A stretch of 64,000 nucleotides of DNA. Source: an uncultured Solirubrobacteraceae bacterium (lineage in GTDB: Bacteria > Actinomycetota > Thermoleophilia > Solirubrobacterales > Solirubrobacteraceae). The stretch is from assembly GCA_963846015.1 (NCBI GenBank), contig CAWJUE010000005.1, positions 81,466-145,465 on the forward strand, written 5' to 3'. The position numbers and the translations under genes were made by a program. Below the pieces are notes generated by a model, which saw only the letters and a program-made list of their open reading frames with translations, was not told the DNA's origin and ran no database searches. The stretch's first letter is position 1. Each line of letters starts with the position of its first letter. This document shows, piece after piece, positions 41,488-53,071 of this stretch.

Positions 41488-41784
41488 TTAGCCGCGGCGC
41501 ATCAGGCGACCGACCGCGTCCATCAGCTCGGCCGTCTTGTCGTCGCGCTCGGCCGCGGTCTCGGCGCCGATCACGCAGTGGTGCGCGTGATCGTCGAGCA
41601 GGCCGAGCGCAACCTTGTCAAGCGCGGCGCGCACGGCCGAGATCTGCGTGAGCACGTCGATGCAGTACCGGTCCTCGGTGACCATCCCCTCGATCCCGCG
41701 GACCTGACCCTCGATCCGCCGCAGCCGCGCCAGCAGCTGATCCTTGGAGGCCGTGTACCCGCGCGTCGTCGTCGATTCGGTCAT
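41488..41784 (-). CDS. csoR: CsoR family copper-sensing repressor
   Basis: RLRRIEGQVRGIEGM..RYCIDVLTQISA..DDHAHHCV (Cys-His-Cys ligands). Confidence 0.88.
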   Translation of the reverse strand: MTESTTTRGYTASKDQLLARLRRIEGQVRGIEGMVTEDRYCIDVLTQISAVRAALDKVALGLLDDHAHHCVIGAETAAERDDKTAELMDAVGRLMRRG

Positions 41785-41803
41785 CGGGCGCGCAGAATAC
41801 CAC

Positions 41804-41818
41804 TACCCCCTATGGGTA
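41804..41818. promoter_or_regulatory. CsoR operator
   Basis: TACCC-N5-GGGTA (TACCCCCTATGGGTA) between divergent csoR and the permease, overlapping -10 TATGCT. Confidence 0.8.
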
Positions 41819-41828
41819 TGCTGAAGCG

Positions 41829-43148
41829 ATGCTCGACGTGATCTGGCATGGCGTCCGCGACGCGCTGCTGATGGCCTGGGAGGTCTGGTGGGCGCTCGTG
41901 GCCGGCTTCGCGATCTCCGCGATCGTCCAAGCCTGGGTCCCGCGTCAGCGGATCGAGCGGGCGCTCGGGGCCGACCCGTCGCATCCGGTCGCGCCGGTCG
42001 CGCGGGCGACCGCGCTCGGCGCGGCGTCCTCGTCGTGCTCGTATGCGGCGGTCGCGATCGCTCGTTCGCTGTTCGACAAGGGTGCGTCGCTGACCGCGAC
42101 GCTGGCGTTCCAGTTCGCCTCGACCAATCTCGTGTGGGAGCTCGGGCTCGTGCTCTGGGTATTGATCGGCTGGCAGTTCGCGGTCGCCGAATACATCGGC
42201 GGGATCGTGATGATCGTGCTGATGGCGATCGCCGCCCGGACGTTCGTGAGCCGGACGGTGGAGCGCGAGGCCCGGGCCCGCGCCCACGACGCCGACCCCG
42301 GTCATCAGCATCACTCGGCCGGCGGCGAACACGGGGCCGGCGGCGAGTTGGGGTGGCGCCGGCGACTGACCTCGGTGCAGGCCTGGTCAGACGTCGCCCA
42401 TAACTTCCGCGGCGACTGGCAGATGCTGTGGCGCGAGATCACGATCGGATTCGTGCTGGCGGGGTTCATCGCGCAGGTACCCGACCGGGTGTTCCGGCTG
42501 CTGTTCATCCATTCCGCGCCCGCGCCGCTCCCCGCGATCGAGAACGCCGTCGTCGGGCCCGTGATTGCGGTGCTGAGCTTCGTCTGCTCGGTCGGCAACG
42601 TGCCGCTGGCGGCGGTCCTGTGGTCGGGCGGGATCGGGTTCTCGGGCGTGATCGCGTTCCTGTTCGCCGACCTGATCGTGCTGCCGATCATCGCGATCTA
42701 CCGCAAGTACTACGGCGGGCGGTTCGCCTGGCGGATCACCGCGCTGATGGCGGTCACGATGATCGTCGCGGCGCTGATCGTCGACGCCCTCTTCTCGCTG
42801 CTCGGGTGGGTTCCGTCCGGCCCGCGGCCCACCCGCGCGCACGTGTTCGCCTCGATCGGGCTCAACTACAAGTTCTGGCTCAACCTCGCGGCGACGATCG
42901 TGTTCGCCGCGCTGACCTGGCTGACGCTGCGTCGCGGCGCCGTCGACCCGGTCTGCGGCATGCGGGTCGATCGCGCCACCGCGGTCGTCCGCCACACGCC
43001 ATCGGGGACGCGGTACTTCTGCTCCGAGCACTGCGCCGCTCGGTTCGACGCCGGGGTCATGCAGCGGGGACGCCGGGGCCACGCACGACGACGGCGGTGC
43101 CGCGCATGCGCACGTCGGCTGACCGCATCACCGATCACGGATCCGTGA
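41829..43148 (+). CDS. DUF318/ArsP-type permease with C-terminal YHS metal-binding domain
   Basis: ASSSCSYAA, SFVCSVGNVP, His-rich loop HQHH; DPVCGM..YFCSEHC. Confidence 0.85.
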   Translation: MLDVIWHGVRDALLMAWEVWWALVAGFAISAIVQAWVPRQRIERALGADPSHPVAPVARATALGAASSSCSYAAVAIARSLFDKGASLTATLAFQFASTNLVWELGLVLWVLIGWQFAVAEYIGGIVMIVLMAIAARTFVSRTVEREARARAHDADPGHQHHSAGGEHGAGGELGWRRRLTSVQAWSDVAHNFRGDWQMLWREITIGFVLAGFIAQVPDRVFRLLFIHSAPAPLPAIENAVVGPVIAVLSFVCSVGNVPLAAVLWSGGIGFSGVIAFLFADLIVLPIIAIYRKYYGGRFAWRITALMAVTMIVAALIVDALFSLLGWVPSGPRPTRAHVFASIGLNYKFWLNLAATIVFAALTWLTLRRGAVDPVCGMRVDRATAVVRHTPSGTRYFCSEHCAARFDAGVMQRGRRGHARRRRCRACARRLTASPITDP

Positions 43149-43177
43149 CGACCGACGTCGGCGGACTCGGTGTCGGC

Positions 43178-43418
43178 CACGGTTGGTCGTTTTTGCCGAT
43201 CGGGGGACGAAAAGAGACCAAGCCTGCAGCGCAAGACCCGTGCCCCGTGGCCCCTGTTACTCAGCGCTGGACCTCGAAACTGCGGATTCCAGGAAACCCT
43301 TGAGTCCGGGCGCGCGGCTGGCGACTCGGGCGCGGCCGCGCCAGCGAGGTTGCGGGCCCCAGGTCGATCACGGTTGGTCGTTTTTGCCGATGGGAGGACG
43401 AAAAACGACCAATCCCTG
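43178..43418. repeat. Two copies of a REP-like palindromic element
   Basis: CACGGTTGGTCGTTTTTGCCGAT..GGACGAAAA.(G/A)GACCAA at 43178-43221 and 43369-43412; each folds TTGGTCGTTTTT/AAAAACGACCAA. Confidence 0.75.
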
Positions 43419-43673
43419 GGATGCGGGGGCGCGGCATCTGGTGCTGGGGCGGCGACCTGGTGGGGGCGCTGGGCAGGGCGCTGTCCGTGAGCTCGTCGCG
43501 CCCGGGCGTCTGCGTGGCAGCCCGCTGCGGGCTGCTGCGGTCGGGCCCGACGGTGGGCACGGCGGCCGTCGTGGCCCGGGCGGCCCGTCGCGGCCCGGCA
43601 GCCCGCCGCGTGCCCGGGCAGCCCGCTGTGTGCCCGGCGTCCGGCCGGGCACACGGCGCCGCCGTCCCACCTC

Positions 43674-44153
43674 TCAAGCGGCGGCGGTCGCCTCAGCGGG
43701 CAGTTTCGGCTCGGGTGCGTCCTCTCCCTCGGAGCGGACGATCAGAACCGGCACGTTGCTGTGGTTGAGCGCGTAGTGGCTGACGCTGCCGAGTACCGCC
43801 GCGCTGAGCGCCCCGCGGCCGCGGGTGCCGAGCACGACCAGGTCGTAGCGCCCGCTGTGGATCTGGCAGATCAGCGCTTCGCGGATCGGATCGTCGGACA
43901 GGATCGTCGTCACCGGGATCGAGGGCGGCACCCGATCGACGGCCGTCCGCAGCGTCAGCTCGGCCTCGTGCTGCAGCTCGGATCCGATCGGGCCGGCAAC
44001 AACCATCGGCGTGTTGGCCCAGTACGGGGGGCGGGAGACGGCGGTCAGCAGCGTCAGGCGCGAGTTCTGACATTCGGCCAGATCGATCGCTTCGCTCAGC
44101 GCTCCGTCCGCCTGAGGGGAGCCGTCCACGCATACCAAGATGTTTCTGAACAT
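43674..44153 (-). CDS. Universal stress protein
   Basis: MFRNILVCVDGS, DLVVLGTRGRG..LGSVS..VPVLIV. Confidence 0.92.
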   Translation of the reverse strand: MFRNILVCVDGSPQADGALSEAIDLAECQNSRLTLLTAVSRPPYWANTPMVVAGPIGSELQHEAELTLRTAVDRVPPSIPVTTILSDDPIREALICQIHSGRYDLVVLGTRGRGALSAAVLGSVSHYALNHSNVPVLIVRSEGEDAPEPKLPAEATAAA

Positions 44154-44179
44154 GTCGTCGCTCGTTCATCTGTGGCTTA

Positions 44180-44205
44180 TTGGCATGCCAAATATTAGCA
44201 TGGCA
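44180..44205. promoter_or_regulatory. Probable MarR operator
   Basis: Perfect palindrome TTGGCATGCCAA (44180-44191) plus degenerate TTAGCATGGCAG between divergent usp and marR. Confidence 0.6.
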
Positions 44206-44225
44206 GTGGCTGCTACGGTTGGCTC

Positions 44226-44777
44226 ATGGCCGACCTTGAGGAGTTGACCGAGGTGATCTTGATCAAGCCGGGAGCGGCGCTGGGAGCGGATCGTGGCGAC
44301 AGCTTCGTCGACGCGGTCGACGCGGTCGACGCGGATGGTGGCGACAGCTTCGTCGAGGCGTTCGACGCGTTTTCGCAAGCGATCCGGCGCGCGCGGGGGG
44401 CCGGTTCGGATCATCCCGGGGGGCTGACCTTCTCGCAGTACGCGCTGCTGCGCACGCTCGCCGACCGCGATGGCGCGCGGGTCTCGGATCTGGCCGGCCA
44501 GGCGGCGGTGACGCCATCGACGGCGACGCGAATCCTCGACGCGCTCGAACGCCGGGCGATCGTCTGCCGTACGCGCTCAGCGCACGACCGCCGCGGCGTC
44601 ACGGTCACGCTGACCGACGCCGGACGGGCGGCGCTGCACCGCCAGGACGCCTGGATGCAGGGTCGCCAGCGGGCGTTCTACGCCCAGCTGCCTGAGGATG
44701 AGCGCACGCTGGCGCCCGATCTGCTGCTGCGGATGTCGGCGCTGATCGACGAGCTCGCCGCCGGGCCGCAGGACTGA
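44226..44777 (+). CDS. MarR family regulator
   Basis: LTFSQYALL..PSTATRILDALE..R...DRR...TLTDAG. Confidence 0.88.
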   Translation: MADLEELTEVILIKPGAALGADRGDSFVDAVDAVDADGGDSFVEAFDAFSQAIRRARGAGSDHPGGLTFSQYALLRTLADRDGARVSDLAGQAAVTPSTATRILDALERRAIVCRTRSAHDRRGVTVTLTDAGRAALHRQDAWMQGRQRAFYAQLPEDERTLAPDLLLRMSALIDELAAGPQD

Positions 44778-45043
44778 CACGGCGACTCCCGAATCCGACG
44801 TTCTTCACACCTCGTCCACATCGGCGCACGGTTGGCCTCCTATAAAACGTCGTGCTGCTCGCCGGGCGCCAACCCTCCTCGGGCGCCCGGCGGGCCTGCG
44901 TTTGACCTGCGGTGGAGCGCGACCCCCCGGTTGTCTGTAGTTCCGCGTCGCGGCCTGGCAAGCTGTTCCGCCGTGCCGGAATCTCAGCGATCGTGCCTCC
45001 CGTTCTCTCGCCAGACCCCCAGCCGACGCGGGGATTCGTAGCG

Positions 45044-46048
45044 ATGCCGTCCGCACGTCCCGGCGCCGCGGCGGTCTCCGTTGGCGCCAGTCTCCCGGCC
45101 GGCGTGCTGCTCAACGCGGAGATCGAGGCCCGGCTCGAGCTCGCGCCAGACTGGATCTTCCGCCGCACCGGGATTCAATCTCGCCGGCAGGCGAGCCCCG
45201 ACGAGCGGCTCCAGACGCACGCCACCGCGGCGGCGCGTCAGGCGCTGGAACGAGCTGGAGTGGCCGCCGAGGAAGTCGAGCTCGTGATCGTCGCAACGAC
45301 GACGGCGGACGAGATCATGCCCGGCGCCGCCCCGCTGGTCGCTCACGACCTGGGCGCCACCCGGGCCGGCGCGTTTGATCTCAGTGCCGCCTGCACCGGC
45401 TTTCTGTCGGCGCTATCGGTTGGGTCGGCACAGATCGAATCCGGTCGCGTCGAGCACCGCGGTGATCGTTGGCGCCGACCTGATGTCACGGATCACCGAT
45501 CCGACGGACCGCTCAACCGCCGTCGTATTCGGCGACGGCGCCGGCGCGGTCGTGTTGCAGGCGACCGACACCGACAGCCTGATCGGTCCGGTGATCCTCG
45601 GCGCCGACGGCGCGGGCGCCGATCACATCCGGGTCGGCCGCGAGGACGGCATGATCCGGATGCGCGGGCACGAGACCTTCCGGGAGGCGGTCGCGAAGCT
45701 GTCGCTCTGCACCGAACAGGCGATCCGCGCCGCCGACGTCGCGCTGGACGAGATCGACCTGTTCGTCTATCACCAGGCCAACGGCCGGATCCTGACGGCA
45801 GTCGGCGAGCGCCTCGGCCTCGACCGCGCGAAGGTCGTCGACTGCATCGCGGAGCTGGGGAACACGACCGCGGCGACGCTGCCGCTGGCGCTCGACCATG
45901 CGCAGCGCGACGGCCGGCTGGTGCCGGGCGCCAAGGTGCTGCTCGGCGCGTTCGGCGCCGGGTTCACCTGGGGCGCGACCGTGGTTGACGTGGGGCCCGC
46001 CCACCCCGCCCGACCCCACCGGTCCCGCCCACCCGAGGTCCAGCTTGA
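45044..46048 (+). CDS. fabH: 3-oxoacyl-ACP synthase III (frameshift ~45450; C-terminus uncertain)
   Basis: WIFRRTGI, DLSAACTGF (Cys), FGDGAGA, HQANGRI (His), GNTTAA (Asn), GAGFTWG. Confidence 0.88.
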
Positions 46049-47469
46049 CGCTCGCCCTGGCGCCGCAGCCAACCACGACGACCACGACGACGCCGCTGGC
46101 CCGGCTCGAGGCGCTGTGCGATCCCGGCTCGCTGCAGCTGATCCGCACCGAGGTGATCTCCGCCGCGATGGGTGCCAAGGCCCGCGCCGGCGACGGCGTG
46201 CTCGGCGGCGCCGGCACGGTCGACGGGCGCCCGGTGTTCTGCTATGCGCAGGACCCGAGCTTCGTCGGCGGCTCGCTGGGCGAAGCCCATGCCGACACGA
46301 TCACGCGCGTGCTGGAGCTCGCTGATCGCGGCCGCGCCCCGGTCGTCGGGTTCGTCGCCTCCGGGGGCGCCCGCATGCAGGAAGGGGTCGCGGCGCTCGG
46401 CGGCTACGGACGGATCTTCCGCCGGACGGTCGCGCTGTCGGGACGCGTTCCGCAGATCTCGATCGTGACGGGGCTGTCGGCCGGCGGTGGTGCCTACTCG
46501 CCGGCGTTGACCGACTGGGTCGTGATGACCGAATCGGCGAGCATGTTCCTGACCGGCCCCGGCGTCGTCCGCGACGCGCTGGGTGAGGACGTCGACGCCG
46601 AGACGCTCGGCGGCACCCGGGTCCACGGCCGCAACGGCGTCTGTCAGTTCGTCGCCGAGGACGACTACGCCGCCGCGCTGCTGGCGCGTGATCTGCTCGG
46701 CTACCTGCCGAGCCACCGGGACGAGCGGGCACCGGCGCGCTCGCCCGAGCCGCCCGCCGCAGGGGATCCGGGAATGCCGGTCCCGGCGCAGCCGCGGCAG
46801 GTGTACGACGTCCGGGACGTGCTCGCGGGTCTCGTCGACGACGGCCGCCTGCTGGAGGTCTCGTCGGCCTGGGCACGCAATCTCGTCTGCGGCTTTGCCC
46901 GCCTCGACGGCCGCAGCGTCGGCGTGATCGCCAATCAGCCCCGGTACCTCGGCGGCGTGCTCGACGCGGCGGCGTCGGAGAAGGGCGCGCGGTTCGTGTC
47001 CAAGTGCGATGCGTTCGGGATCCCGCTGCTGGTGCTGGTCGACACCCCGGGCTACATGCCCGGCACCCGGCAGGAGGGAGCCGGCGTGATCCGCCACGGC
47101 GCCGGCCTGGTGCATGCGTTCGCGCAGGCCACCGTCCCGCGGATCACGCTGATCGTGCGCAAGGCGTTCGGCGGCGCGTTCATCGCGATGAACTCCAAGG
47201 ATCTCGGCGCCGACTACGTGTTCGCCTGGCCCCGCGCCGAGATCGGCGTGATGGGCGCCCGTCCCGCCGTCGGCGTGATTCACCGCCGCGAGCTCAGCCG
47301 GGCGCCGGACCCCGAAGCCGAGCGCGAGCGTCTGGCGGCGCAGTACGCGGAGGCCCAGCTGCGCCCGCAGGTGGCCGCCGCAACGGGATACGTCGACGAG
47401 TTGATCGAGCCGTGGGAGACGCGCGGACGGCTGGCGTGGGCGTTCGGGACGCTGGCGGCGCGGCGATGA
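46045..47469 (+). CDS. Acyl-CoA carboxylase carboxyltransferase (AccD/PccB-like)
   Basis: GGSLGEAHA, SGGARMQEG, AGGGAYSPALTD, MFLTGP, VDTPGYMPG, RKAFGGAFIAM. Confidence 0.9.
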   Translation: MTLALAPQPTTTTTTTPLARLEALCDPGSLQLIRTEVISAAMGAKARAGDGVLGGAGTVDGRPVFCYAQDPSFVGGSLGEAHADTITRVLELADRGRAPVVGFVASGGARMQEGVAALGGYGRIFRRTVALSGRVPQISIVTGLSAGGGAYSPALTDWVVMTESASMFLTGPGVVRDALGEDVDAETLGGTRVHGRNGVCQFVAEDDYAAALLARDLLGYLPSHRDERAPARSPEPPAAGDPGMPVPAQPRQVYDVRDVLAGLVDDGRLLEVSSAWARNLVCGFARLDGRSVGVIANQPRYLGGVLDAAASEKGARFVSKCDAFGIPLLVLVDTPGYMPGTRQEGAGVIRHGAGLVHAFAQATVPRITLIVRKAFGGAFIAMNSKDLGADYVFAWPRAEIGVMGARPAVGVIHRRELSRAPDPEAERERLAAQYAEAQLRPQVAAATGYVDELIEPWETRGRLAWAFGTLAARR

Positions 47470-48606
47470 GCGGCGACGTCCTGCTGACCGGCGCCACCGG
47501 CTTCGTCGGGATGGAACTCGTCGCGCAGATATCTGGAGCGCTCGGATCGCGACCTGATCACGCTCGTCCGGGCCGCCGACGATGCGGCTGCGCAGGCGCG
47601 GATGAACGCGGTCCTCGACGACTTGTTCGGCGAGCGCGCCGGGCGCTACCGCGGTCGCGTCCGCGCGGTGGCGGGCGACGTCACGGCGCCGGGCCTCGGC
47701 CTGACCGCCTCGATCCGTGACGAGCTCGCCGAGCGGACCTCGACGATCGTCCACTCGGCCGCGTCGGTGTCGTTCACGCTGTCGCTCCCCGAAGCGCGCG
47801 CGATCAACCTCGAGGGCACCCGCCGGATGGTGGAGCTGGCCGAGCTCGCCAATCGGCGAGGTGGCCTGGACTGCTACGGCCAGGTCTCCACCGCGTTCGT
47901 CGCGGGAGACCACGCGGGCGCCTTCGCCGAGACCGACCTGAACGTCGGCCAGCAGTTCCACAACTCCTACGAGCAGTCGAAGTTCGAGTCCGAGCTGCTG
48001 GTTGCCGCCAGTGACCTGCCGAGCCGGGTGATGCGGCCGAGCATCGTCGTCGGCGAGCGTGAGAGCGGCTGGACGGCGGCGTTCAACGTGGTCTACTGGC
48101 CGCTGCGGGCGTTCTCACGCGGGCTGTTCGATGTGATCCCGGCGGACCCGAGTGCGCCCGTCGACGTGGTCCCGATCGACTACGTCGCCGACGCCGTGTA
48201 CGCGCTCTGCGGCGACGCCGGCACCGACGGTCAGACCTACCACCTGACCGCCGGCCCGCACGCCAGCACGATGTTGGAGCTGTGCACGATGGCGAGCCAC
48301 TACTTCGACCGTCCGCCGCCCCGGGTCGTCACCGCCGAGGAGTTCGCGAAGCTGCCGCCGCCGAGCGTCGCCGTCCAACAGGCGTTCATCGCCGGCGCCG
48401 CCTACTTCCCGTACTTCGCGATGGAGGGCTCGTTCGCGGACGCGAACACACGGCAGCGGCTGGAGCCGGTCGGGATCAGCTGCTCGCCGCTGCCGGACTA
48501 CATCGACCGGCTGCTGGATTTCGCGACCCGGAGCCGCTGGGGCAAGATCCGGATCCCGCGCGCGGAGGCGGTCGGGGTCCCACGCGCGGACGTGCTCGCG
48601 GCCTGA
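47466..48606 (+). CDS. Fatty acyl-CoA/thioester reductase (extended SDR, NAD_binding_4), frameshift ~47527
   Basis: LLTGATGFVG, GDV..PGLGL, HSAASVSF, VSTAFV, YEQSKF, RPSIVVG, VPIDYVA. Confidence 0.87.
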
Positions 48607-48689
48607 CCTCCGGCCCGTCCCCCCAGCCGGGGGGTTGGCCGACCGGTTCGCTTGCCCGCGCCGGACCCGAGGCAGACGATCGTTCGATC

Positions 48690-48971
48690 GTCCCGCTCGC
48701 TGACATCGCCCGGTTCCGCCCCGATGATCCCGACACGCTCGTGCAGGCATCGCTCGCCTGTCCGTTGTGCCTCAGCTCAGAGCAGGTCGTGTGGGAGGGG
48801 GCGCTCGAGGGTTACGATCCGTCGATCCGATGCGAATGTGGCTCGTGCCAGCAGCAGTGGAGCGTCTACCTTGCGCCCGAGCAGGCGTTGCGGCTCGGTT
48901 TGATGCACGCGCACGCCCGGCTGATCGCGGCGGTGACGGCCGCTGACAGATCACGCGGCGTCGCGCGATGA
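48690..48971 (+). CDS. Small Cys-rich zinc-ribbon-like protein (start uncertain)
   Basis: ARFRPDDPDTLVQASLACPLCL..RCECGSCQQQWSVYLAPEQALRL; stop overlaps kinase start (ATGA). Confidence 0.65.
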   Translation, partial: VPLADIARFRPDDPDTLVQASLACPLCLSSEQVVWEGALEGYDPSIRCECGSCQQQWSVYLAPEQALRLGLMHAHARLIAAVTAADRSRGVAR

Positions 48972-50125
48972 GCGACGTCGTCACGCAGGACGGCGAGGCC
49001 GGTCTCGGCGTCGGCGCCGTCGAGCTGCTCGTCGACGTGCTCTCGCAGTCAGACTCCAGCCGCCCCGCGGGCGCGGCGCCGACCGACTTCTACGACCGGT
49101 TGTGCGAGGCGGTCTGCCGCTTGGCGCGGATGCGGCGCGCGGTCATCTTCCAGTACGACGCGGGGACGCGCCGCGTGCGCGCGGTCGGCGTGCACGCGAT
49201 CAGCATCGCGCCGTTCGCCGACGCGCAACTGTCGTTCGACTCGCTGCCGATCACCGCCCGCGCGCTGGCGGAGGACGCGGTGCTCGAGGTCGTCGGCGAT
49301 CTCACCGGCCAGGCGTCGGAGGAGTTCGCCGAGCTGGTCTCAGAGCCGGCGCAGCTGGTGTGCGCGCCGATGGCCGCCGCCGGTCGTGCACTCGGCGTGA
49401 TCCTCGCCGATCGCCCGATGAGCGACCCGCCGCTGCAGGACGCCGACCGCAGCCTGCTGTGGACGCTGGGCAAGGTCGCGGCGCTCGTATCGGTGGCGCG
49501 GACCGTCTCGACCCAGTCCGAGCGGGCCCGAGCGCTGGAGCAGCGGATCGACCTGGCGCGGGAGATCCACGAGGGCGTGATCCAGCGGCTGTTCGGGGTA
49601 TCGATGGCGCTCGACGGCGACGGTGACCTGCCGGAATCGGCCCGCCAGCGGTGCGCGACCGAGACCCAGTCGGCGCTGGCTGAGCTGCGGTCGGCGCTGC
49701 AGCGCCCGCTGGGGCGCGCGCCGCGCGCCACCCAGACGACGCTGTTCGCGGAGATCACGCGGCTGGCGCGGCTGCATCCGGTGCTCGGGCTCGAGCTCGA
49801 GCTGGAGCCGGGTCAGCCGCCCGTCCAGGTGCCGGCGGCGCTCGAGCCGCTGGCCCAATCGGTTCTCCGTGAGGCGGTGCGCAACGCGATCAAGCATGCC
49901 GAGCCGAGCCGTGTATCGGTGCGCGTCGGGGACGCTGACGGGGCGTTCTCGATGGAGGTCGTCAACGACGGGGTGGCGCCCGACGCGCGCCGGCTCGCCG
50001 GGATGGGACTGCGGCTCGCGACGGTCGAGGCGCTGCAGTCGAACGGTTTCGTCGAGTTCGGCGAACGTGAGCCGGGGACCTGGCAGGTCCGTCTGGTCGT
50101 TCCCGACGAGGACGGCGATGAGTGA
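48968..50125 (+). CDS. Soluble GAF-HisKA_3 sensor histidine kinase
   Basis: GAF (LVCAPMAAAGRALGVI), H-box LAREIHEGVIQRLF, EAVRNAIKHA, NDG, GMGL; no TM seen. Confidence 0.88.
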   Translation: MSDVVTQDGEAGLGVGAVELLVDVLSQSDSSRPAGAAPTDFYDRLCEAVCRLARMRRAVIFQYDAGTRRVRAVGVHAISIAPFADAQLSFDSLPITARALAEDAVLEVVGDLTGQASEEFAELVSEPAQLVCAPMAAAGRALGVILADRPMSDPPLQDADRSLLWTLGKVAALVSVARTVSTQSERARALEQRIDLAREIHEGVIQRLFGVSMALDGDGDLPESARQRCATETQSALAELRSALQRPLGRAPRATQTTLFAEITRLARLHPVLGLELELEPGQPPVQVPAALEPLAQSVLREAVRNAIKHAEPSRVSVRVGDADGAFSMEVVNDGVAPDARRLAGMGLRLATVEALQSNGFVEFGEREPGTWQVRLVVPDEDGDE

Positions 50126-50744
50126 GGCTCGGGCGGCGCAGCGCAGCCCGGCGCGGCTGCGGGTGCTGGTCGTCGACGATCACGACGTCGTGCACTGGGG
50201 CTTTCGGCTGATGCTCACCCAGCAACCGTGGGTGGAGCGATGCCTGAGCGCCCAGAACGGCGCCGACGCGTTGGAGCTGGCGGCCCGCTATCGCCCGCAT
50301 GTGGCGCTCGTCGACCTGTTCATCGGCGAGGAGTCGGGTGCCGAGGTGTGCGAGCGGATCCGGGCCGAGCAGCCGTCGACGCGGGTGCTGCTGTTCTCCG
50401 GCGCGGGCGAGATCTCGTCACGGGCCGCGCGGGCCGCGGGCGCCTCAGGGTTCGCCTACAAAGACTGGCCGGCGCGGCGGATCGCGGAGGCGGTGCGACT
50501 GGTCGGGCTCGGCAGGACCGTGTTCGAGCGCCACGAGCCGCAGGGTGCGATGGGGCTCTCCGAGCGTGAGCGAGCGGTGCTGGAGCTGATGGCCTCAGGC
50601 GCCACCAACCCCGAGATCGGCGAGACGCTGCACATCTCCCGACACACGGTCAAGGAGCACTGCTCGGCGGTGTACCGCAAGCTCGGGGTTCGCAACCGGA
50701 CCGAGGCCGTCCAGCGCGGGCAGCTGCTGGGGCTGTTGCGCTAG
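50118..50744 (+). CDS. NarL/LuxR family response regulator
   Basis: VLVVDDH, VALVDL, YK; LSERE..GATNPEIG..TVKEH..KLGVRNR. Confidence 0.92.
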   Translation: MSEARAAQRSPARLRVLVVDDHDVVHWGFRLMLTQQPWVERCLSAQNGADALELAARYRPHVALVDLFIGEESGAEVCERIRAEQPSTRVLLFSGAGEISSRAARAAGASGFAYKDWPARRIAEAVRLVGLGRTVFERHEPQGAMGLSERERAVLELMASGATNPEIGETLHISRHTVKEHCSAVYRKLGVRNRTEAVQRGQLLGLLR

Positions 50745-51379
50745 GCGCCGAGCGCCAGCATGTACAGGCGCACGAGCTCGTCGATCACATCGTTCATCGG
50801 GTAGGCGCCGTTGCTGATCGCCCAGTCGGTCATCGCGTAGCGGGTCGCGCCCAGCAGCGCGCCCGAGGTGATCGTCAGGTCACGGCGAGGGATCAGTCCG
50901 ACGGCCATCATCTCCTCGCCTTGGCCGAGGAACAGCTCCATCAGCTGCTCGCCGGTGACGCGCCGGTGTTCGTCTGAGTCGGCGACGACCGCCAGCACCT
51001 CGAAGAAATGGACGCGGGCGGCGCGCGGGTCCTCGACGAAGCCGGCCGCGTAGGCGGTCAGGCCGACCGTCACGCGATCGCTGACGCCGGCGCCGGCGCC
51101 GGTACCGGCCAGCGCCAGCCCGATGCGCTCGGCGGTTCGCTCGACGATCCGCGCATCAACGGCGAGGATCAGCCGCTCCTTGGTCGCGAACAGCTCGTAG
51201 AAGGTCCTCGTCGAGACGCGGGCGCCGGCGCAGATCGCCTCGATCGAGGCGGCGGCGAAGCCGATCGTCCCGAACAGCTCTAATCCGGCGTCGAGCAGCC
51301 GCGCACGGCGCTCGGCGGCGCGCTCCTCGGGGGCCTTACCGGCGTAACGGCGAGACGGTCGGGGTGGGGAGCGATCCAT
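50741..51379 (-). CDS. TetR family regulator
   Basis: YAGK..ERRARLLDAGLELFGTIGF..SIEAIC..VSTRTFYELF. Confidence 0.9.
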   Translation of the reverse strand: MDRSPPRPSRRYAGKAPEERAAERRARLLDAGLELFGTIGFAAASIEAICAGARVSTRTFYELFATKERLILAVDARIVERTAERIGLALAGTGAGAGVSDRVTVGLTAYAAGFVEDPRAARVHFFEVLAVVADSDEHRRVTGEQLMELFLGQGEEMMAVGLIPRRDLTITSGALLGATRYAMTDWAISNGAYPMNDVIDELVRLYMLALGA

Positions 51380-51458
51380 CGGCGACTGCCACCGTAGCGC
51401 GCGCTCAGGCAAACCGATAAGATTTCTGACCAGATTGATCGTGGAGAGAGGAGACGCC

Positions 51459-53071
51459 GTGTCAGATCAGAGATCAGAACGGGGCGAACCCGGCGGGAGA
51501 TCGTCCGGCTGGGGGCCGGCGCGGCGGCGACGGCGCTGCTGCCGGTCATGGCGCCGGGCACGGCCGCGGCGGCGGTGCGCACAGCCACTCGGCCAGCCCC
51601 ACACAGCCCATATCCGCGCAGCCCACTGACCGGCGCCGCGACGCGCCGGGTCGATCCCGGAAGGTTCATGCCGCCGAGGCAGATGCGCAGCTGGTATGAG
51701 CAGCTCGACGGCCGCGGCCTGCGGGCGACCGGCTCGAGCGAGCACCAGAGCTACATCGATCAGCTCCGCGCGAGGCTGCCGCAACTCGGCGTGTCGGGCG
51801 TCGTCGCGGAGGACGTCCCGCTGACGCGCTGGAGTGCGTCGCCGCCGACGCTCGACATCGTCTCAGGCCCGTCGGCCGGATCGCTCCCGGTGGCCAACTA
51901 CATCCCGTACTCGGGCCCGCTGCCCGGCGGCAGCGTCACCGGCGAGCTCGTGTTCATGCCCGACCCATCCGCTCCGGGCGCGACGCCGCCGGCGCCGGGG
52001 TCGCTGGCCGGGAAGATCGCGGTGTTCGACATCACGATCCCGCCGTACACGCTCGGACTGTTCGCGCTGTTCGGCTATGAGATCTACAACAAGCCCGGGT
52101 TCGATCTGACCGCACCCTACGTCCGCTCCTATCTCGCGCAGGGCGACGTCGAGGCCCAGGAGGTCGCCGCGCAGGCCGCGGGCGCGGTGGCCGCGATCGC
52201 CGTTCTGCCGCTGAACGAGTTCGCCTCGCGGGGGATGTACATGCCCTATGACGGCGTGATCCACCAGATCCCCGGTGCGTTCGTCTCGCAGGGCACGGGC
52301 GACACGCTCAAGGCGCTCGCCGGAACCGGCACGCAGGTTCGGCTGGCGATGAAAACCGAGATCAAGCAGGTCAAGACCCAGAACCTGTATGGCTTCATCC
52401 CCGGCGCATCGAAAGAGCTCGTCGTCGTCCACAGCCACACCGACGGCCCCAACGGAATCGAGGACGACGGACCGGACACGATCTCGTCGATCGCGCAGTA
52501 CCTGGCACGGATCGACCCGCACGCGCTGCCGCGGACGGTGATGATCCTCTACACCAGCGGCCACTTCGCCGGCGGCGTCGGCGCCGTTGCATGGTGCAAG
52601 CGCCACGCCCATGACCTGATCCCCCGGATCGCGGCGGCGGTGACGGTCGAGCACGTCGGCGCCAAGCAGGGCACGCCGCAGCCAGACGGATCGGTCACGA
52701 TCTCCAACACGCCCGAGCCGCAGGCGTTCTTCATGCCGCAGAGCACGGGCCTCGAGCGCGCGTCCTACGGGATGTTCAAGCAGGCGGGCCGCCAGGCGGG
52801 CCTGGTCGCCAAGCCGCTGACCCCGAACGCGACCCCGACCGAGGCCGCGTGGCCGGGGGAGGGGCAGTACCTCTGGAACAACGGCGGGATCGCCGACACC
52901 AACTACATCACCGGTCCCAGCTACCTGCTCAACGCCGGGATGAAGACGACCGGCTACGTCGACTACGGCGATCTGCGACGCAAAGCGATCGCGTTCACGG
53001 ACATGGCGCTCGGCTTGACGCGCGCCCCCCGGGCGAGCCTAACCGCGCCGAAGCCGACCCACTCTGGCTAA
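51459..53071 (+). CDS. Tat-exported PA-domain, M28-peptidase-like protein (frameshift just after start)
   Basis: GAGGAG RBS, TRREIVRLGAGAAATALL signal; LRATGS, HSHTDG, EDDG, EHVG. Confidence 0.7.

Follow-up and report, generated by a model that had tools for sequence, protein, structure and literature searches.

A candidate two-component activator of fatty acid synthesis at a split operon in Solirubrobacteraceae

Why should genes for a soluble histidine kinase and a response regulator sit directly behind a handful of genes for making fatty acids? The question is posed by positions 44,226 to 50,744 of a 64,000-nucleotide stretch of DNA, here called the window, from an uncultured Solirubrobacteraceae bacterium (GenBank assembly GCA_963846015.1, contig CAWJUE010000005.1). 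Eight genes were read there from open reading frame translations and profile searches, all on the forward strand and in the order first stated for them. The original prediction, made from the letters of the window, had named marR, fabH, a carboxyltransferase, an acyl-thioester reductase, a zinc (Zn)-ribbon protein, a GAF-domain kinase and a LuxR-type regulator, and family-model matches bear out both identities and order. It went on to propose a synthesize-and-sense circuit, quorum-like or serving lipid homeostasis, in which the enzymes make a small lipid that the kinase detects inside the cell. Comparison with relatives (mostly soil metagenome-assembled genomes of Solirubrobacteraceae and Solirubrobacterales, the remainder Actinomycetota) points to an answer that we consider probable. 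The kinase and regulator would be a dedicated two-component activator of type II fatty acid synthesis (FAS II), whose operon is here split in two, acting through a C6-N4-G6 palindrome.

An operon in two parts

The cluster holds no gene for acyl carrier protein (ACP), FabD, FabF, FabG or biotin carboxylase, as had been noted from the start. A second FAS II locus, the core copy, lies elsewhere in the same genome (4.05 Mb, 69% complete) at C5:538-548 kb, where a kinase and a regulator are followed by fabD, fabG, acpP, fabF, accD and fabI, with no fabH. The core operon is contiguous, with fabD abutting fabG, despite that completeness. The window copy retains fabH, a second accD, the reductase, the Zn protein and a second kinase pair. 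fabH is cleanly absent between fabD and fabG of the core copy in the source genome (G000) and in G008, G012 and G028; other members of the genus retain it there. Window-type fabH is the sole FabH-family match in six genomes (G000, G004, G008, G010, G012 and G028). Whether this is the only housekeeping fabH/accD set in its genome, a question on which the original prediction was made to depend, is in part answered against that prediction: the fabH is the only one found.

What the parts once looked like together may be seen further afield. In other genera and families, 12 loci have the same pair immediately in front of fabD-fabH-fabG-acpP-fabF-accD-(maoC)-fabI (with single genes absent from L255 and L269). 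Often the Zn gene comes before the kinase at these full operons, and the reductase is the last gene at six of the 12 (L255, L256, L259, L270, L271 and L285). Since its enzymes all occur in the FAS II operon of relatives and its canonical FabH nests there, we read the window cluster as a reduced second copy of the housekeeping operon, the two copies here complementing each other. Further partial copies carrying the palindrome occur, one with fabH-acpP-fabF-fabI-biotin carboxylase in G022 (L085, G022:C1:28000-36500) and one with kinase-regulator-fabH-accD-reductase and four sites in G021 (L288, G021:C6).

FabH itself, the β-ketoacyl-ACP synthase III, occupies 44993 to 46048 on the forward strand; both ends are deduced, the likely start being the GTG at 44993, with an ATG at 45044. 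Extra bases at 45453 and 45986, likely assembly errors, break its frame, so its two halves were scored separately and full-length scores were taken from the intact ortholog in a close relative (L112). The Cys-His-Asn triad is present (AACTGF, HQAN and GNT in the window; HQAN in 101 of 101 orthologs). The ortholog passes the FabH models TIGR00747 (314.5 against a cut-off of 292.1) and PRK09352 (335.9 against 249), and falls far short of the StlD/DarB model NF005293 (46.5 against 450); by these measures it is a canonical FabH. In trees of the regulators and FabHs, built with FastTree and, for FabH, containing sequences from relatives only, window-type FabH nests among the FabHs of kinase-linked core operons. 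The window copy could have arisen by duplication or by transfer from a relative.

The next gene (46045 to 47469, forward strand) encodes an acyl-CoA carboxylase carboxyltransferase of the AccD/PccB type, with a PF01039 match at 2e-145 and matches in the Protein Data Bank (PDB). Its paralog is the core-operon accD at C5:545447-546823, and biotin carboxylases are encoded elsewhere in the genome.

How constant is the company these genes keep? We collected 80 window-type loci and tallied genes in the 72 with at least 7 kb of upstream sequence. The unpublished genomes G025 and G030 entered one set of tallies only and support none of the statements made here. The kinase and regulator are present in all 72, the Zn protein in 71, the reductase in 69, fabH in 66, the carboxyltransferase in 56, marR in 53 and fabF in 10; fabD and ACP are in none. 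That the pair is syntenic with the enzymes in relatives, as the original prediction needed, is therefore borne out. Within the family the kinase occurs in 98 of 151 genomes (33 of 42 genera). Two more families of the order have it, whereas 124 genomes sampled from other orders of the class gave none. A fabH was found in 26 of 27 kinase-positive genomes (27 chosen of 97) versus 28 of 53 kinase-negative ones, kin that are not independent. To judge from the palindrome found in front of both copies, described below, the pair is likely a dedicated fatty acid synthesis switch across much of Solirubrobacterales. As an aside, the other 25 of the 53 kinase-negative family genomes (G062, G080, G092 and G138, for example) gave no fabH match at E<=1e-60, several of the 25 being 95-100% complete.

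A candidate operator and its reach

If the pair controls both copies, what might it bind? Two palindromes in the window, overlooked in the original prediction, offer a candidate. One, a degenerate C6-N4-G6 at 44921 to 44940, lies 72 bp before the likely fabH start. The other, a perfect C6-N4-G6 at 48617 to 48636, lies 70 bp before the Zn-kinase-regulator genes (both on the forward strand). Across relatives the upstream regions show CCCCCC-N4-GGGGGG before fabD and the degenerate ACCCCCCGnnTGTC[GT]G before window-type fabH; one pattern matched 32 of 35 such regions, and the remaining three show visible variants.

A matrix trained without the two sites of the source genome, and used to scan all 4.05 Mb of it, ranked the fabD site first, 48617-48636 second and 44921-44940 third; the second-ranked site had not been looked for. 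The exact C6-N4-G6 occurs twice in the genome, 48617-48636 being one of the copies, against 0.03 expected, and never with spacers of 0-3 or 5-12. All 66 loci with fabH have a called site ahead of it, and 58 of 77 have one ahead of the Zn gene. Where fabH has been deleted (L177, L180, L181, L184 and L185), the site precedes the reductase instead. The three classes of site mostly stand 70-72 bp from the start codon, which for leaderless transcripts puts the centre near -61. Among held-out fabD promoters, seven of ten linked to the kinase score 11-21, whereas all 12 unlinked ones score 5.5 or less. The site at 48617-48636 likely means that the pair regulates its own genes, to judge from its placement.

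It also bears on transcription. The original prediction had the genes mostly overlapping in a single operon. Ahead of the Zn-kinase-regulator part, however, comes a gap of 80 bp that contains a palindrome of its own, at promoter-like spacing. The cluster is likely two transcription units, the second being these three genes.

A different promoter for fabH had been put forward earlier, a TATAAA with a hairpin leader. Both elements exist: a TATAAA -10 box at 44841-44846 and a 14-bp hairpin at 44857-44895 (together 44841 to 44895, forward strand). The hairpin folds with a z of -2.3 (4 of 200 shuffles fold equally well), its anti-Shine-Dalgarno-like loop CUCCUC is invariant in 26 of 26 aligned copies, and 5 of 14 pairs show two-sided changes. 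Roughly one in three loci with marR retain TATAAA and hairpin, the loop being present in 21 of 63. Four relatives, though, have them in front of a phosphodiesterase-like gene some 2 kb from fabH, and the element persists where that gene is lost. For that reason it is likely not the fabH promoter but the leftover promoter and leader of a lost phosphodiesterase-like gene, or else a small RNA; the TATAAA could still add read-through into fabH. Apart from one chance row, no Rfam match was found in 43000-52000, and the genome has no second copy of the hairpin, so we dropped the idea of a known RNA. A sigma-70 scan gave nothing at 44841 and one chance-level site.

The predicted regulon is small. Beyond the fab genes, promoters of aceE (pyruvate dehydrogenase) carry a palindrome scoring at least 10 in 10 of 29 genomes, versus none of 29 coding controls (L222-L251, for example G027:C1:16086 and G022:C196:4213); the source genome has none there. 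Six of these sites lie 10-11 bp before a -10 box, two of the six being the discovery cases, and the other four, which overlap the start of a divergent esterase gene, are doubtful. About 36 neighbourhoods of other exact-pattern sites hold mostly unrelated genes, once each, and a CCCCCCTGAAGGGGGG variant of the palindrome recurs within gene-poor stretches. A serine palmitoyltransferase (SPT)-like gene looked for a while like a further member; its C6-N4-G5 site (C8:174998) is present in one of 30 genomes only, and we rejected it. The gene (G000:C8:175055-176317; L072:2556-3818) has SPT as its best NCBIfam model, at 389 against a cut-off of 640. Of 46 genomes from the order, 43 have a match at E<=1e-60, in a few cases to a paralog further removed, which hints at sphingolipid-like lipids in Solirubrobacterales.

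The sister lineages without the linked pair may have something else in its place. Their FAS II operons (L274-L284) carry a different palindrome, TT[C/T]GACA-N-TGTCGAA, upstream of fabD in 9 of 13 loci versus 0 of 12, and a TetR/EthR-type gene follows accD in four of five intervals examined. Its product is a second candidate FAS II regulator within the same family. At one such locus (L274:4435-9114, in G157) a class II ribonucleotide reductase with a LAGLIDADG intein adjoins the fab operon.

Several things weigh against the reading of a dedicated FAS II activator at a split operon. The regulatory evidence is comparative throughout. Some of the tallied loci come from genomes used in training the matrix, 3 of the 10 held-out kinase-linked fabD promoters score just 6.5-7.0, and a symmetrised matrix puts the window fabH site at rank 10 of 55. 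G105 and G209 have kinase paralogs, yet their FAS II operon is unlinked and has no site, and 28 of 53 kinase-negative genomes of the family have kept a fabH. On the side of the split, the source genome is incomplete and indel-rich, the four core-copy losses of fabH may be one event, as their regulators cluster, and window-type FabH is not sister to the core FabH of its own genus.

What the kinase pair may sense

The kinase (48968 to 50125, forward strand) is predicted from domain models, alignment and structure to be a soluble GAF-HisKA_3-HATPase protein. The claim that it has no transmembrane segment is confirmed, the highest 19-residue hydropathy being 1.53 and the structure model agreeing. 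Pfam HisKA_3 on its own scores 22.7 against a cut-off of 24, a DesK fold match was found, and His201, Glu302, Asn306, His310, Asp334, Gly345 and Gly347 of the H, N, G1 and G2 boxes are invariant in 83 of 83 aligned copies. Three cysteines in the GAF region are near-invariant (82 of 83 each). A ligand could not be read from the fold, which gave generic GAF matches only, the best at Z 17.8 and 8% identity. The regulator (50118 to 50744, forward strand) is of the NarL/LuxR type, with a receiver and a GerE helix-turn-helix domain. Its paralog in front of the core operon shares 63% identity and a conserved recognition helix, which differs at one position (S[RK]H in window-type regulators versus SPH); the kinase is 47% identical to its own paralog there (C5:538-540 kb).

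Ahead of the pair, at about 48687 to 48920 on the forward strand, is a protein of about 76 residues with CxxC and CxCxxC motifs, a predicted Zn ribbon whose four cysteines are invariant. It has no Pfam match and belongs to no named family; its model (predicted local distance difference test score 85) matches no structure at E<=0.001, the weak rows including PDB 3po3_S and 9rtt_b. Of 50 kinase-positive genomes 15 have it, against 0 of 30 kinase-negative ones; in 12 of these 15 its gene adjoins that of the kinase or the reductase, and on this distribution it is likely an optional accessory to the pair. Apparent fusions of the domain among distant matches look like frameshifted read-throughs, and we set them aside.

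The reductase (47466 to 48606, forward strand, with an extra base near 47525 that is likely an assembly error) is a stand-alone NAD_binding_4 enzyme. It matches PF07993, carries the Rossmann GxxGxxG and YxxxK motifs of an extended short-chain dehydrogenase/reductase (orthologs have TGxTGFxG in 82 of 91 and YxxSK in 89 of 91), and resembles thioester-reductase domains, the MxaA reductase domain being the nearest solved structure (E 3e-30). Against the two-domain fatty acyl-CoA reductase model (PRK07201) it matches the N-terminal domain only, at 162 versus 549. An ortholog lies within 20 kb of the kinase for 16 of the 18 best matches; weaker paralogs occur in kinase-negative genomes also. Wax-ester synthase genes at three places in the source genome provide a possible sink for fatty alcohol. 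PF10520, sought as a sign of an ether-lipid or plasmalogen sink, was found in 0 of 5 genomes but likewise in 0 of 14 controls, and the literature yielded nothing relevant to such a sink. A link between Thermoleophilum and wax esters was looked for and not confirmed.

Put together, the mechanism might run as follows. As a dimer, the phosphorylated regulator would bind the palindrome at the distance of a class-I activator from promoters that are weak and leaderless, activating the fabD and fabH operons and boosting its own genes. Window FabH would prime chains on ACP from the core copy, and the carboxyltransferase, with a biotin carboxylase encoded elsewhere, would supply malonyl-CoA. From long acyl-ACP or acyl-CoA the reductase would produce fatty aldehyde or alcohol, with wax esters the most likely destination. 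What the GAF domain reads is most likely an intermediate of the lipid pathway in the cytoplasm (acyl-CoA, acyl-ACP or free fatty acid), and the Zn protein may be an optional modulator.

There are other ways of reading the same genes. The aldehyde or alcohol made by the reductase might itself be the ligand of the window-copy kinase, feeding back on the same operator in a closed intracellular loop. No other enzyme is retained with the pair as tightly as the reductase (69 of 72 loci), and there are minimal modules of site, kinase, regulator, site, reductase and Zn protein without any fab gene (L263, and G069, G090 and G210 by coordinates). The autoregulatory site and the GAF-region cysteines would suit such a loop, as would the S[RK]H helix of window-type regulators alongside the asymmetric fabH site. 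But in 6 of 12 operons headed by the pair there is no reductase, and the pair can hence do without that enzyme's product. All six kinase-positive genomes of family f4 lack a reductase ortholog at E<=1e-60 while keeping the same cysteines, and the GAF fold is generic. We regard the loop as unlikely, if the best of the alternatives. Equally doubtful, in our view, is a broader synthesis. There, Zn protein, cysteine-bearing GAF kinase and NarL-type activator would be the master switch of fatty acid synthesis in much of Solirubrobacterales, interchangeable in evolution with TetR, its second copy in this genus sensing the aldehyde or alcohol of its own reductase and its regulon reaching pyruvate dehydrogenase in some species.

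The quorum-like half of the original prediction fares worst, and we give it the least credence of all. On that view the pair would read a diffusible signal, of the photopyrone or dialkylresorcinol kind, to whose production FabH, carboxyltransferase and reductase are dedicated. FabH-fold signal synthases do exist, the cluster has neither ACP nor fabD in any of the 72 loci, and in many genomes the core operon has kept a fabH as well, which would leave the window copy free to specialise. Set against this, the FabH is canonical rather than StlD/DarB-like and the sole FabH-family match in six genomes. Nor is the synthase separate from primary lipid synthesis, all the enzymes being ordinary pieces of relatives' core FAS II operon. 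On these grounds the dedicated signal is unsupported. Moreover fabH, carboxyltransferase and fabF are lost independently of one another (present in 66, 56 and 10 of 72), which is unlike a fixed pathway; the housekeeping operon has the same operator in front of it; and the regulator carries a receiver and not a ligand-binding domain. The lipid-homeostasis half survives, in that a shared candidate operator ties the pair both to the operon and to itself. Hardly more probable than a quorum signal is that some other factor binds the palindrome, either the MarR acting like FabT or an unlinked regulator, with the kinase pair merely a conserved neighbour. A marR does fall within 53 of the 72 loci, and marR-fabH resembles the streptococcal fabT-fabH-acp order (PMC4996995). 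However, the MarR does not match the FabT model, and no marR match lies beside core fabD in 21 core-type loci, whose promoters have the best palindromes. The kinase genes, too, have the site in front of them. From genus to genus it goes with the linked pair, and another takes its place in lineages without the pair.

Kinship with known systems, and the neighbourhood

To our knowledge, the dedicated FAS II regulators (FadR/FabR, FapR, FabT and FasR/MabR) are one-component proteins that bind lipid directly, and open-access full text yielded no description of the present system. FasR of Streptomyces coelicolor and MabR of Mycobacterium belong to operons with gene orders such as fabD-acpM-kasA-kasB-accD6. 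They resemble the present system in the accD-type gene and in having lipid-pathway intermediates as likely signals. They differ in being PucR-like one-component proteins with no receiver, whereas here a receiver-GerE regulator, predicted to be phosphorylated, is paired with a soluble GAF kinase and an optional Zn protein. Their operator is TTTTGT-N9-ACAAAA, not C6-N4-G6, and here the operon may end in an acyl reductase, while in this genus it is divided between two partial copies, each with its kinase pair. S. coelicolor FasR binds near -67 and activates (PMC5541348), and the regulator gene stands directly before fabD with a palindromic operator at activator distance, much as here. By position and operator distance, the kinase pair probably works as FasR and MabR do, without being a member of their family.

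In Bacillus subtilis, DesK-DesR likewise joins a HisKA_3 kinase and a NarL-type regulator in control of a lipid enzyme and of their own genes; DesK senses through membrane helices and controls a desaturase, whereas here a soluble kinase with a GAF domain is linked to core chain synthesis. PpyS and DarB/StlD, with their LuxR solos, also place a FabH-fold enzyme near a LuxR-family gene, but here the FabH is canonical, the context housekeeping and the regulator of the receiver type. The best-scoring named models were MadS for the kinase (40.8 against a cut-off of 500) and MadR (103 against 300) and MctR for the regulator, all too far below cut-off for membership of MadS/MadR or MctS/MctR. Streptococcus pneumoniae, with FabT and YycFG/WalRK, offers a marR adjoining fabH and a two-component regulator acting on fab transcription; the abstract of PMC4996995 presents YycF as a global regulator whose unphosphorylated form acts on the fabT promoter, and does not describe it as an operon member. 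The pair here is, by contrast, operon-linked with a predicted regulon of very few sites, and its MarR fails the FabT model.

If our reading is true, there would be a further means of controlling the synthesis of membrane and storage lipids, a soluble kinase pair linked to the operon and provided with an operator of its own, and this in a group of soil bacteria that is widespread but little studied. Direct and inexpensive tests are within reach, given the 16-bp site, its fixed position and the natural exchange for TetR in sister lineages. The system is also a route to a new GAF ligand and to a function for an unnamed Zn-ribbon family.

The frames of fabH and the reductase deserve a word, as both genes are frameshifted in the assembly as deposited. 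In L112, 85% identical in DNA, the genes are intact, without the extra bases at 45453, 45986 and 47527. Contigs from four of four runs, each from a different study, lack the bases near 45452 and 47525, and contigs of one run lack that near 45990. Core fabD, fabG, fabF, accD and fabI are likewise frameshifted in the same assembly (G000:C5:542281-547652), which shows a high indel error rate. The frameshifts of fabH and the reductase are likely sequencing or assembly errors. The overlap of the Zn and kinase genes depends on another likely extra base, at 48916. A fusion of FabH with the carboxyltransferase was entertained, since the frames permit read-through if just the two confirmed extra bases are wrong; none of 67 relatives has it fused, and we discarded it. 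No listed contig spans the junction at 46008-46049, where there is probably a third extra base. Two metatranscriptomes contain short pieces resembling cluster genes, a small share, and these are not counted as evidence of expression.

At the front of the cluster, the MarR-family regulator (44226 to 44777, forward strand; Pfam MarR) scores 31.7 against the cut-off of 200 of the FabT model NF050133. In relatives it often lies kilobases from fabH, and it is likely part of an upstream usp/marR unit outside the core module. Downstream of the regulator, relatives (L114-L190) often carry genes that the window does not, for a cNMP-CBS-DUF294 nucleotidyltransferase (52 of 72 loci) and an RNase T-like exonuclease (48 of 72). 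Upstream of marR, at 41488-44153 of the window, are genes for a CsoR-like repressor, an ArsP-type permease with a YHS domain and a Usp protein, a metal or stress block that adjoins the cluster in several relatives too.

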